The notes beneath the pieces were generated by a model. It had not been told where the DNA came from, did not search any database, and saw only the letters and a program-made list of their open reading frames with translations. Shown one piece after another: positions 6,085 through 50,526 of a DNA stretch of 64,000 bases. The position numbers were made by a program, and so were the translations under genes. The DNA comes from Eledone cirrhosa. Taxonomy: Eukaryota. Position 1 is the stretch's first letter, and the number at the start of each line of letters is the position of its first letter. The stretch lies in NCBI GenBank assembly GCA_964016885.1, contig OZ024741.1, positions 350,734,001-350,798,000 of the forward strand, written 5' to 3'.

Positions 6085-6837
6085 CACGATAAATTAACGG
6101 AGCCATAGACTCTCGCTATTCCCTGTCAATAATGTGCTCAAAGGAGAAGGAATCCTAAGCTCTTTAAAATATAATATGTTGAAAAGGTAACACACTAGAG
6201 AGAGATACAGTGCGCTATCAATAAAACAGGGAAAAACCACCAGTGTATGGAATCTATAACCTATGAAAGGCAGGGTAGACACACGATAATTAAAAATATA
6301 AATTAAAGTGTATATACATACCTCTATAACTATATAACACACGTACAAATCCAAAGAGATCCGTTTCGCCAGAAAGTTGTTGACTGAAATGAAGTAGCCC
6401 ATGGTTCATCAGCGTGTGTAAGGCCAGACAACTCGAAGAGAATTTAAAGCGACCGTCCAGCTACACGTGGGAGAGAGATGTCACAGCGTGTTTAGGGCAG
6501 TGAACCAGTGGTGTCTGAGGGACGAGCTGCTAGAAAGGGCAGCCCAAAACCACTCAGAGGAGTGTGCTCAACCAAACAGAGAAAGAGGAAAGACTGTTAT
6601 AAGGAGCGAAATATCACGATAAATTAACGGAGCCATAGACTCCCGTGATATTTCGCTCCTTATAACAGTCTTTCCTCTCTCTCTGTTTGGTTGAGCACAC
6701 TTCTTTGAGTGGTTTTGGGCTGCCCTTTCTAGCAGCTCGTCCCTCACACACTACTGGTTCACTGCCCTAAACACGCTGTGACATCTCTCTCCCACGTGTA
6801 GCTGGACGGTCCCTTTAAATTCTCTTCGAGTTGTCTG
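6085..6837 (-). mobile_element. ORF-less PLE/retrozyme-like cassette in (TA)n: ~28-bp direct repeat 530 bp apart plus ~195-bp inverted arms
   Basis: cacgataaattaacggagccatagactc occurs at 6085 and 6615. 6425-6618 is the near-perfect reverse complement of 6644-6837. There is an internal HHR and (TA)n on both sides. Confidence 0.75.
6337..6419 (-). ncRNA. Type I hammerhead ribozyme
   Basis: Reverse complement reads acacacg-CTGATGA-acca..tggc-GAAA-cggatc(tctttg)gatttg-TA-cgtgtgt, giving a 7-bp stem I, a 6-bp stem III with GU pairs and a GUA cleavage triplet. Confidence 0.85.
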
Positions 6838-7105
6838 AAATATATATATATATATATATATATATATATATATATATATATATATATATATATATATATA
6901 TATATATCATATGAAATAATACAGCCAATTTTCCACACAATACATTTAGTTAGCACCCCGAACGTTTAATTAGGAATATACTCACTTATTTCCTAATGTT
7001 TGTTGAGTGAGTTGGAATTTGACCGGAGTATCGCTAAAAGCTTTCTCCGATGATGTATTTATTTATATATATATATATATATATATATATATATATATAT
7101 ATATA

Positions 7106-7234
7106 TAGGAACCAGTAAGACCCCGACAGCTGAGCTCAAGCCGTTTCGACGGCTAATTCTGGACTGAATTAGCTAGTCCAGAATTAGCCGTCGAAACGGC
7201 TTGAGCTCAGCTGTCGGGGTCTTACTGGTTCCTA
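7106..7234. repeat. Perfect 60-bp-arm hairpin containing the 3' half of a hammerhead (5'-truncated, inverted PLE end)
   Basis: Arms are 7106-7165 and 7175-7234. The right arm reads gtc-GAAA-cggct(tgagctc)agctg-TC-ggggtc. It is flanked by (TA)n, with an extra tail to ~7320. Confidence 0.8.
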
Positions 7235-7424
7235 TTACCCACTCTACTACCTCAAGTATTGAGTACTTTGGTGCGTTATGGTCCACCTGGTTCCTTACCA
7301 CATTTCCTTCGTTATATTTATATATATATATATATATATATATATATATATATATATATATATATATATATATAAAATATAATAACAGGAGGCTGGACTT
7401 GTGTAAATCATTGAAAGGTTTATT

Positions 7425-7482
7425 ATACTATGATCATTTCAATGACCGGGTTCCGTATGAATCCGGTGATATCATCAGGTAT
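7425..7482 (-). ncRNA. Minimal hammerhead ribozyme
   Basis: Reverse complement reads atac-CTGATGA-tatcaccgg..ccggtcatt-GAAA-tgatca-TA-gtat, with a palindromic stem III. It lies ~50 bp from (TA)n. Confidence 0.75.
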
Positions 7483-7929
7483 TTGAAATATAATAAATGA
7501 ATGTAACAGATAAAATGCATGGGGCTGAAAATCATAGACCCGAGGACGACCGACCATCCAGCGTCTTCCACTTTAGCCGGTCGCCCTCAAGTGCTGGCTA
7601 TTCGGTCTACTTAAGGCTATCTGGTGAGGGGGCGAAAGCTTATAATGTGCTACTAACCTCCCGGTCAAAGGGAAAAAAAAGACAGAAAGAAAGAAGAAAA
7701 GTCAGCGTAAATGTCATGCTACAATCAGGCTAGGAATTGCCGCGAAAAATGTTATTCTAAAGAACCTATATCTTAACAGAGGTATATATTATAACAGAGG
7801 TATATATAGTGGCGTCTGCATGGTATAATGTGTGAACAGAAAATAGGAATGTTAAATTTTTGTTTAGCTTTATAAGATGAAATTAAAAAAATAAAATTAA
7901 AGATTAAAATCATAAAATTAAAAAAATTT

Positions 7930-8040
7930 GAAAATAACAACACAATCGGTACAGTATATGGAAGGGAAATATTAGGTTAACGCTTGATATAGCAGGAAGA
8001 GGGTCTTAAAGTTTCGGACTCTAGTCCTTCATCAGAAGAA
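7930..8040 (-). mobile_element. PLE-like terminal fragment with degenerate HHR core; related partial copy at 42609-42705 (+)
   Basis: Reverse complement reads CTGATGA-aggac(taga)gtcc-GAAA-ctttaagac. The downstream sequence matches 42609-42705, which also sits between TA-rich tracts. Confidence 0.55.
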
Positions 8041-47995: not shown

Positions 47996-48894
47996 CTGAA
48001 TAAGAAAACAGAAGAAAATAGTGGTAGTGAGTAGAAATTAATAATTCAACATTCCAAACTTTAACAACATGGATAGCAGAAACAATCATCATCATTTTAT
48101 GTCCACTTTCCATGGATTGGACAGATCCGAGGCTAGATTGGTTGGAAAGCCACATCTTACACTTACATTTCATATTTAGTGTGATTTCTATGGCTAGATG
48201 CCATCCTAATACCAAACACTTTATCAACCCCAGTACTTATTTTTCAAGCCTGATACTTATTTTATCAGTTTCTTTTTGTCAAAATGTGAAATAACAGGAT
48301 ATAAACACTCACTCACAAATGTAAATACAGGCACATACATATATATGAGAGAGAGAGAGAGAGATTCATAGAGAGACACAGGCAGACAGAGAGAGAGAGG
48401 TGTCTGTGGAATTTCTGAGAAATGAGGGTGGGGATAAGCATACATCCCAGAGTAGTAGACAGCTGCCAGTGGTTAAGATGTTTTGAGAGATAGAGAGAGA
48501 AACATGTCTGTAGAAGTTGAGGCAGCACGGAAAGTAAGCACCCAAGTATAGACAGCCACCCCATCCCTCGTCCTGGGAGGGGGGGGGGGGAGAGTTCTGA
48601 GAACAAGAGAGAGAAAGGAAGAGTAGCAGTACATGTCACTTCGCACTCCAGAGTTTTTTCTCTTCTTTCTAAGCCCCACATCTACAAATCGGGGACTTCT
48701 CCCAGATGTCTTAGGATTTTAAAACAAAATGAATTTAGGCAAGCATCTACACACCATCAAGCCAGTGTGTAAACTTCTACACAACTGCTCAACTTGCTAG
48801 AAATATCAACACAATCTCCCTCAAATCACACACTACCTTCTGAACTTTTCACATCCTATAAGGATTTTGCAGAAATTATCTAAAAATAGGTTTG

Positions 48895-49395
48895 TTAATT
48901 CAAATATTTATAGTATCTTTACTAGTGAACAGATTGTTGTGAAAACTTACAGTATTAGCATAAAAACATTCATTTTTAATGTAATGAATGCAGTCATAGT
49001 TCTATTTTGTACTTTTGAAAAATGTTTTGCTGATGTGGTTTCTTAATTGAAATGATACAATACTTATAGAATCTTTACTAGTGGACAGATTGTTGTGAAA
49101 ACTTGATATATTTGATTAAGGACTTTAATTTTTAGTGTGATGTAGTCATAATGCTGTTCTGTACTTCTTTAAAATGTCTTGTTAATGTGGTTTATTAAGT
49201 CAAAAGTTTATAGTATCTTTACTAGTGAACAGGTCATTGTGAAAATTTGTAGTAAACTAAACATTTTATTTTTTAATGCAATGTAGTCATAGTGCTATTT
49301 TACACTTGTCAAGAAAGTCTGGCTGATATGGTTTGATAATTCAAATGTTTATATCATCTTTACTACTGGACAGATTGTTGTGAAAATTTATATTG
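48895..49395. repeat. ~148-bp degenerate tandem repeat, about 3.5 copies
   Basis: atctttactagtg(a/g)acagattgttgtgaaaa recurs near 48915, 49071, 49215 and 49357. Confidence 0.8.
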
Positions 49396-49669
49396 GGTAG
49401 ATGGAAAAAACTCCCTATTTGAAATTTTTAATAACTTTATTAATTATTAGTTGATTTTCATAAAACATGTTTTATTTTAAACAGTATAATGGTAGAAGTA
49501 CCATAAAATTCTACATTGGTACCGGTGTTACCCACCTGTGTTTGTAATCATCTAGGTATATCCTAAACTGATTTCATCAGGAACTCAGGCAGTATGTTGG
49601 TCTGTACATGAAGAATGTGTTCCTCTAATTGTGTCAGAGCTTTTGGTTTTGAGCAATAAACTTCTTTTA

Positions 49670-50092
49670 GTGCCATGACAAAAAGCACCTAGTCCACACT
49701 GTAAAGTGATCATGTTAGTGACATGATAAAAAAGAGCCCAGTCTACACTGTAAAGTGGTCATGTAGGTCACATGACAAAAACAGCCCAGCCCACACTGAA
49801 AAGTGGTTGTCACGACAAAAAACACCCAGTCCACACTGTAAAATGGCCATGTAGGTGCCACGACAAAAATCACCCAGCTCACACTATAAAGTGGTAATGT
49901 AGGTGTCATGACAAAAAGCACCCACTATACACTCTAAATGTGGTTAGCATTAGAAAGGCCATCAAGTCATAGAAACCAAGCCAAAATCAGTTCTATATAA
50001 GCAAGACACGGTCATCTGACCTAATGTGTCTCGAGGGATAACTTGTCTAACCCATGCTAGCATGGACAAATGGACGTTAAACAGTGATGATG
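49670..50092 (+). mobile_element. RTE-tail/SINE with a ~48-bp unit amplified about 6 times
   Basis: catgacaaaaagcacccagtccacactgtaaagtggtcatgtaggt repeated, followed by the family tail. Confidence 0.7.
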
Positions 50093-50130
50093 ATATATAT
50101 GTGTGTGTGTGTTTATGTATATATATATAT

Positions 50131-50526
50131 GAATATAAGTATGTATACGTACATACATATATGTATACAGATGTACAGTAGTATGTATATACATACATAC
50201 ATGCACACATATATATATGTACGTATGGGTTTACCGAACATTTATTATAATGTTTGGTTTGTTTGTAAACAAACAGCCCGAATTAAGCCGTACAGTGTTT
50301 GGCAACCATCGTTGCCCTTTTGTTCAACACTGACAAAGGAACGATGAACTAGTTTCTAGCTTGTTAGCTGTCATCAGCACCGTATACCTTCCTGTCAATC
50401 GATTGAACATTATAATAAATGTTCGGTAAACCCAGACGTACATATATATATGTGTGCATGTATGTATATACATACTACTGTACGTCCGTATACATATATG
50501 TATGTACGTATACATACTTATATTCA
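50131..50526. mobile_element. Inverted-repeat cassette (~120-bp arms) enclosing a hammerhead
   Basis: 50131-50254 is approximately the reverse complement of 50406-50525. The 150-bp spacer contains an HHR and the flanks are TA/TG microsatellite. Confidence 0.75.
50341..50383 (-). ncRNA. Minimal hammerhead ribozyme
   Basis: Reverse complement reads acggtg-CTGATGA-cagc(taacaa)gcta-GAAA-ctag-TT-catcgt. Confidence 0.78.

Follow-up and report, generated by a model that had tools for sequence, protein, structure and literature searches.

Head-to-head hammerhead cassettes beside (TA)n tracts of Eledone cirrhosa and the pairing of their end sites

Fold-back cassettes and single ends in the window

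A stretch of 64,000 nucleotides from the genome of Eledone cirrhosa (assembly GCA_964016885.1, contig OZ024741.1, positions 350,734,001 to 350,798,000 of the forward strand), referred to below as the window, contains five inverted-repeat cassettes, A to E, the single ends F and G and the 3' part of an element H. The five inverted repeats proposed in a first-pass annotation were all located in the sequence, in or beside (TA)n tracts, and the eight elements are unrelated in sequence as it had supposed, no blastn match being found between any two of them at E<0.01. The families involved are Penelope-like elements (PLEs) and retrozyme-like repeats, and the two arms of a cassette end, in nearly every pair counted, at two different sites of the family, called here the short (S) site and the tail (T) site. 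The features are given below with their window positions and strands.

1..1527 (+): element H, 3' part of a putative Hydra-type PLE, with the GIY-YIG end of an open reading frame (ORF, 206-1129) and the 3' untranslated region (UTR), reaching (TA)n; recognised from ORFs and CxCX5C, CxxC and CxH motifs
1435..1469 (+): hammerhead of H, minimal and of type I, with U3-A8 core, palindromic stem III and 2-bp stem I, from scans; the motif is also found at loci L134 and L260
6081..6643 (-): main arm of cassette A, one 532-nt non-coding unit with a 32-nt partial tandem copy; its tail (T) site end adjoins (TA)n
6338..6419 (-): hammerhead of A with canonical core, 7-bp stem I and real stem III
6644..6837 (+): inverted arm of A, atypical, stopping about 250 nt short of the short (S) site of the family
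7106..7165 (-): short (S) arm of cassette B, left end at (TA)n
7172..7312 (+): tail (T) arm of B, with the hammerhead 3' half (7190-7219), the S site (about 7234) and an 80-nt tail followed by (TA)n
7375..7600 (-): single end F, hammerhead motif at 7425-7478 with canonical core, palindromic stem III and weak stem II base
7930..8100 (-): single end G, minimal hammerhead at 8003-8035, stem III broken in the window copy
19804..20114 (-): tail (T) arm of cassette C, variant hammerhead (core 20020, 3' half 19935-19954), tail of about 85 nt
20115..20360 (+): short (S) arm of C, variant hammerhead at 20222-20312, followed by (TC)n(TA)n
20500..20761 (-): tail (T) arm of cassette D, minimal hammerhead at 20684-20712, ending in (TATC)n near 20500-20519
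20763..20955 (+): short (S) arm of D, minimal hammerhead at 20812-20840, 3' UTR of a putative Neptune-type PLE, beginning just past the TATA/initiator (Inr)-like site of the family
42607..42707 (-): older second fragment of family G, 82% to 7931-8023, flanked by TA-rich tracts
50131..50405 (-): short (S) arm of cassette E, hammerhead at 50347-50377, belonging to a non-coding tandem unit about 425 nt long
50406..50574 (+): tail (T) arm of E, reaching about 50574

The arms of the inverted repeats are 97% identical in A (6425-6618 and 6644-6837) and in C (19887-20114 and 20133-20360) and 89% identical in D (20500-20761 and 20763-21024, simple repeats included). The repeat of B sets about 7105-7165 against 7175-7235 and that of E sets 50131-50254 against 50406-50526; the right end of E, formerly placed at 50526, is shifted outward by its tail arm. 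Another high-copy repeat, recognised by depth, occupies 6917-7050 between the TA tracts that separate A from B.

The reverse transcriptase (RT) part of H lies upstream of the window start, its frame separated from that of the endonuclease (EN) by a frameshift. The linker of the H ORF (window 400-700) has an asparagine-rich low-complexity insert that resembles the N-rich inserts of Adineta PLEs (PMC3846280; here and below, statements on published work refer to the available part of each source). At 1.3 kb before the window (L175, about 8560-8700), a 142-bp fold-back of family B is situated directly ahead of the truncated RT of H, and its short arm starts at the predicted ribozyme cut.

A strict scan for type-I hammerheads returned four matches in the window (1437+, 20712-, 20812+ and 50377-), all of them with a palindromic stem III, and local dinucleotide shuffles (n=100) gave a mean of 0.01 such matches with a maximum of 1. 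A wider scan adds cassette A (6412-). Complete motifs are thus present in A, both arms of D, E and H, those of A and E being placed outside the inverted arms. Cassette B retains only the hammerhead 3' half, the core being upstream in longer B copies, and in the B parent stems I-III form in the minimum-energy structure. The core of C is non-canonical (CCGAAGGA, with CTGAAGGA in a few copies among those listed), F (7478-) has a mispaired stem II base and G (8035-) a broken stem III, and both F and G fail the scans. The initial scans were too strict, and the strict and wider scans both still miss B, C, F and G. The earlier claim that each element holds a hammerhead or a similar motif is therefore correct in full for A, D, E and H, but B has a 3' half, C a variant and F and G degenerate forms; with motifs incomplete or variant in these four, the description of the cassettes as self-cleaving is probably too broad. 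An Rfam scan of the window had no hammerhead family among the 150 of 183 matches listed, which are microRNA models on simple repeats.

Sixty 10-kb stretches at round coordinates (600 kb) were sampled for the density of such motifs. They contain 83 hammerhead matches spread over 32 stretches, or 138 per Mb, and ten shuffles gave 0-5; a bootstrap by stretch gives 87-198 per Mb, extrapolating to 2.6-5.9 x 10^5 in the genome. The window has 5 matches in 52.7 kb excluding satellite, so that its density, at first thought to be unusually high, is ordinary for this genome. The proposed association with (TA)n holds well, as (TA)6 occurs within 300 nt downstream in 52 of the 78 matches with room downstream (67%) compared with 19% of random positions; matches inside arrays are not independent observations. 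The suspected diversity of families is also borne out, 259 matches in the loci collected falling into 66 clusters. Tandem arrays of 310-nt (up to 11 units) and approximately 430-nt hammerhead units that end at (TA)n are seen at L275, L286, L287 and L293, and their ribozymes resemble that of E.

Pairing of the end sites and the parent families

Each family has two preferred 3' end sites, about 45-90 nt apart. Among the B fold-backs chosen by a 31-mer that lies upstream of both end sites, 44 of 47 pair a short with a tail end, three have one unclassified end, and there are no short+short and no tail+tail pairs; in four of the 44 the tail is partial or not directly before TA. A second script applied to all the loci sampled gave short+tail in 50/50 pairs of B, 12/12 of D, 12/12 of A, 7/7 of E and 11/12 of C, that is in 92 of 93 pairs, the B sets of the two counts overlapping. 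This supports the suggestion of the first-pass annotation that both chromosome ends are primed. Window cassettes B, C, D and E follow the rule, which holds for inserts from 0.1 to 6 kb including an ORF-bearing copy. The further proposal of priming on the RNA 3' region does not agree with the position of the B end sites, which lie between the hammerhead and the next ORF start, internal to the tandem RNA.

The tail ends of D and some ends of C have a variable (TATC)n or (TC)n before the (TA)n (window 20500-20519 and 20361-20374; L002, L007, L008 and L013), as if the RT had recopied a short template at the start in the manner of telomerase. Several further hammerhead families lie at either of two preferred distances from (TA)n, such as 45-50 and 135-140 nt.

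The families were searched in the 3.0-Gb genome (G000), where each of the five cassettes proved in DNA searches to be one member of a dispersed family; the best 40 candidates were scored in each search, from totals of 84 for D, 3155 for C, 3004 for A, 173 for B and 1169 for E. For family B, 22,044 occurrences of an exact 31-mer were counted. The U3-A8 core that the window copy of B lacks is present in longer copies, together with a 1.2-kb UTR downstream of the GIY-YIG end. A complete B insertion has been identified near 11.23 Mb of G000:C1, comprising an inverted tail arm, a partial tandem, an intact 718-residue RT/GIY-YIG ORF (about 11,229,082-11,231,235), the UTR, the hammerhead and a short end at (TA)n. 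The partial tandem that forms pseudo-long terminal repeats (pLTRs) is seen for B at locus L171+L172, and no tandem junction was seen for D, G and H. The B protein has 14,017 relatives at E<=0.001.

Followed upstream, longer D copies pass into an ORF that encodes RT and GIY-YIG and has motifs of Neptune type. In the D parent GIY-YIG (Pfam PF01541) scores above the cut-off and RVT_1 below it, and a stop separates the two parts of the ORF in the copy examined. A CX2-5CxxC linker, GxKF, DKG and an EN CCHH were recognised by eye in this parent (L173, L174), and a relative of G in L082 has GIY-YIG coding sequence upstream (motif by eye, in this one relative). When B and H were checked by eye against the Hydra list (DKT, RWK, CxCX5C, CxxC, CxH and no CCHH), both fit it, with RWR in B, and the N-terminal motifs were not seen in H. 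Judged by such motifs, B and H fit Hydra-type PLEs and D fits a Neptune-type PLE. A Naiad origin of B was dropped on finding the upstream hammerhead core and the C-terminal EN, and the label Nematis was set aside for B since the Hydra motif list fits better.

A and E are non-coding tandem retrozyme-like units, with a type-I hammerhead in each unit and lengths of 516-546 nt (about 535 nt) in A and 421-431 nt (about 425 nt) in E. The next unit, and not an ORF, comes after the tail site in both families, and no contiguous PLE ORF was found in 30 A loci and 25 E loci. The longest copies of C are approximately 1.2-1.75 kb of GT-rich non-coding DNA without an ORF, and nine longer stretches contain no coding parent for C; 11 of the 12 C pairs carry PLE-type short+tail ends, and a Neptune ORF near C in L317 belongs to another family. 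This other Neptune-type family, with its own 3' end, is seen in L317 and L312. F is a dispersed family whose coding parent was not found. The PLE/retrozyme origin put forward earlier is in agreement with the coding PLE parents of B, D, G and H and with the retrozyme-like nature of A and E, and the term ORF-less is apt for the window copies but not for the families B, D, G and H, which have coding parents.

Arm starts and a probable route of insertion

The ends of the arms away from (TA)n are also clustered. Among 94 B arms (47 pairs, one of 48 being excluded for a mis-typed tail arm), 85 have their start 50-62 nt ahead of the short site, up to a limit at the A of TCATTT, which lies 25 nt past TATTTAAA and within hammerhead loop II. 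In D, 31 of 52 arm starts are at 175-186, close to an Inr-like A at 188, one is between 187 and 292, and 15 run past 292; many D loci are best matches to the full arm, a bias that affects the lower bound only. Most arms cross the predicted cut site, and the main template is therefore uncut RNA.

A minor class of arms stops at the predicted cut. At loci not chosen for B, stops at 17-18 nt, which is the predicted cut, are seen in 4 of 19 short and 1 of 17 tail arms, one of these being an internal deletion. Fold-backs centred on the predicted B cut number 57 loci genome-wide against 1 and 26 at two stronger nearby palindromes (6- and 8-nt), and those fetched were short+tail in 6 of 6. Among the 16 largest hammerhead clusters arm starts at the cut are clear in B only, with 0-3 cases elsewhere and register artefacts in A.

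The cassettes are probably truncated head-to-head insertions of several PLE families and of retrozyme-like repeats, each arising from a cut (TA)n tract and two complementary DNAs (cDNAs) primed at two fixed RNA sites. The EN of the element would cut both strands within (TA)n, and the RT would prime at the short site on one target end and at the tail site on the other, each arm being a separate cDNA. As a rule both cDNAs would be extended to the 5' end of the RNA and run off it; in B and D this end may lie at the TATA/Inr-like site, about 60 nt (B) and 190 nt (D) before the short site, with no ORF copied. The two cDNA ends would then be joined with little or no microhomology. Rarely the template may be ribozyme-cut RNA, and A and E would borrow a PLE enzyme in trans. 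In B the two sites lie 60 and 140 nt past the presumed start and ahead of the ORF; priming at the front of the transcript would therefore copy no ORF, and stubs would outnumber long copies.

A more sweeping version of this reading, for which we see the case as evenly balanced, holds that one ribonucleoprotein primes every PLE insertion twice, at the short and at the tail site, and that the cDNAs reach the RNA 5' end, be it a cap or a hammerhead cut. The hairpins would then record, across the genome, the transcription starts of PLEs and ribozyme cleavage in vivo, would overturn antisense self-priming and would show that retrozymes are inserted by PLE enzymes.

It is possible, though we think it unlikely, that the second arm results from fold-back copying, in which the first cDNA or else an antisense RNA primes on itself, as PMC3846280 has proposed (antisense self-priming) for Adineta PLEs. 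An inverted microhomology of 2-5 nt is found at 10 of 47 B junctions, as this model would have it, and the two arms of a locus share subfamily variants in 46 of 48 B pairs. Microhomology is missing at most junctions, however, 37 of 47 having 0-1 nt or inserted bases. Fold-back from the tail arm also predicts that the short arm never extends further upstream, whereas the short arm is the longer one in 12 of the 47 pairs, several of them with identical arms (against 12 with a longer tail arm and 23 ties), and fold-back from the short arm cannot provide the tail. The pairing of short with tail ends, the arm starts and the fold-backs at the predicted cut favour priming from both target ends, with two start sites for the RT, and the present data argue against the antisense self-priming of PMC3846280.

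The hairpins themselves could be the mobile units, copied whole in the manner of miniature inverted-repeat transposable elements (MITEs) or of master fold-back retroposons, and the many near-identical B copies of about 190-210 bp and one junction that recurs four times are in line with this. We consider it quite improbable, as most loci differ in where the junction lies and in its filler (with 87-133 nt from arm to arm in the B hairpins), the end rule is constant over the whole range of insert sizes and hairpins occur in several subfamilies. Equal terminal inverted repeats and a fixed interior, which mark a MITE or DNA transposon, are not seen, the ends being unequal through the tail and the junctions varying by locus. 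An origin of the fold-backs as artefacts of library or assembly, with a (TA)n link that reflects later growth of the microsatellite, is hardly credible, as the arms diverge by 3-11% at C, D and A with a tail on one arm only, three other samples each have about 2,000-7,900 raw reads showing the two B end sites with (TA)n after them, a fold-back junction is present in contigs of a run with another organism label, and the (TA)n bias is 67% against 19%.

Certain points weigh against the reading of two-ended priming by PLE enzymes. As regards the pairing, the sole exception of the 93 is a C pair with tail+tail ends, and the right arm of the window A copy stops early at a non-standard end. The A, C and E loci come from queries that cover or approach one end type, which under-samples short+short and tail+tail pairs, and the choice of B loci by the 31-mer admits only those with one arm of 55 nt or more. 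The common subfamily variants of the arms fit one RNA or fold-back equally, later deletions at the apex could shorten either arm and mimic unequal arms, the junction at the cut site is also readable as a 2-nt CG microhomology, and the second palindrome control (26) is just about twofold below 57. RNA start sites and ribozyme cleavage are here read from DNA alone. As regards the enzymes, the first 639 residues of the B protein have no Pfam match, the probable clades are assigned by motifs, and no parent turned up for families A, C, E and F, which makes mobilisation in trans a conjecture. A depth step in restriction-site-associated DNA sequencing (RAD-seq) data is uninformative on the RNA start because most reads end at one place in the B apex, probably the restriction cut of the library.

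Relation to known elements and other features of the window

The architecture is mostly known, and the elements are further members of known PLE clades and retrozyme-like repeats, that is, ordinary selfish DNA. An inverted copy, a one-sided tail and a (TA)n bias have been described for PLEs (PMC8557442; PMC3846280). Insertions of EN-bearing (EN+) PLEs in these sources share with the present ones the partial tandems, the inverted 5'-truncated copy in head-to-head arrangement, the tail at one end and a pLTR with TATA and Inr; the published tails are 30-40 nt, whereas here they are about 45-90 nt and the pairing is counted and nearly strict. The sources covered contain no account of the pairing rule or of twin priming in PLEs, and supplements and subscription papers, which were outside this search, may contain one. 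The counted pairing rule and the arm-start clusters provide a useful, testable clue to the mechanism of head-to-head insertion in PLEs.

The B and H parents share with the Hydra clade (PMC8557442) DKT (in B), the CxCX5C linker, CxxC and CxH near the EN end, the hammerhead, insertion in (TA)n and a short unit (3,038 bp in B). Unlike that clade, B, placed here by its motifs, has RWR for RWK, a U3-A8 core with long stems II and III and at least 22,044 arm copies. The D parent has GLKF, DKG, YLDD, a C-x4-C-x2-C linker and GIY-YIG in common with the Neptune clade (PMC8557442); this assignment is made by motifs, with Nematis as a possible alternative, and the D copy differs in the stop between its ORF parts.

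The minimal hammerheads described in PLEs (PMC4209133) are likewise of type I, with palindromic stem III and a U3-A8 variant, and are mostly single motifs of truncated PLEs; in Schistosoma, hammerhead pairs 100-700 bp apart on opposite strands are reported in the same work. The number extrapolated here (2.6-5.9 x 10^5) compares with thousands in PMC4209133, the descriptors of the two studies being different. The A and E units agree with animal non-LTR (long terminal repeat) retrozymes (PMC7229834; bioRxiv 10.64898/2026.07.22.740005) in being non-coding tandem units, each with a type-I hammerhead. They differ in the PLE-type short+tail inverted ends, and the A unit of about 535 nt is longer than the published units of 220-390 nt. 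The word 'tail' is absent from the main text of bioRxiv 10.64898/2026.07.22.740005 and 'inverted' from that of PMC7229834. That non-coding repeats obey this end rule too is mechanistic evidence linking retrozymes with PLEs.

The closest biochemical parallel is the protein of an anole PLE, Poseidon, which in vitro cleaves the two strands and extends them, with synthesis beginning at two internal sites bounding the tail (PMC11167929). Two internal RT start sites, AT-rich targets and uncut RNA as main template are common to both systems, and the authors of PMC11167929 found no RNA-seq reads ending at the ribozyme cut. In Poseidon, however, the sites are inside the ORF and show no strand difference, whereas here they precede the B ORF and are used one per end. 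The data bear on the route of head-to-head insertion of PLEs and on possible cutting by their hammerheads in vivo, and the intact, high-copy Hydra-type B element, in which two end sites are mapped and a candidate start site and a cut are predicted, is suited to direct in vitro work.

The remainder of the window is rich in other repeats. A 30-bp satellite of about 377 copies with 90% matches fills 52740-64000 and continues past the window end. LTR-retrotransposon-like fragments broken by stops are recognised by eye at 11196-13615 (-) and 25677-29101 (-), with gag, protease and RT in both and an integrase-like region also in the second. Fragments with EN and RT similar to long interspersed nuclear elements (LINEs) are found in opposite orientation at 3040-4297 (+) and 38329-41356 (-) and are 70% alike. 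A fragment with terminal inverted repeats, presumably mariner-like, lies between TA tracts at 1690-2580. Two copies of a repeat of about 900 bp are found in opposite orientation 16 kb apart, at 17465-18343 and 33882-34764, the former adjoined by a palindromic tandem of 57-59 bp at 17116-17397.

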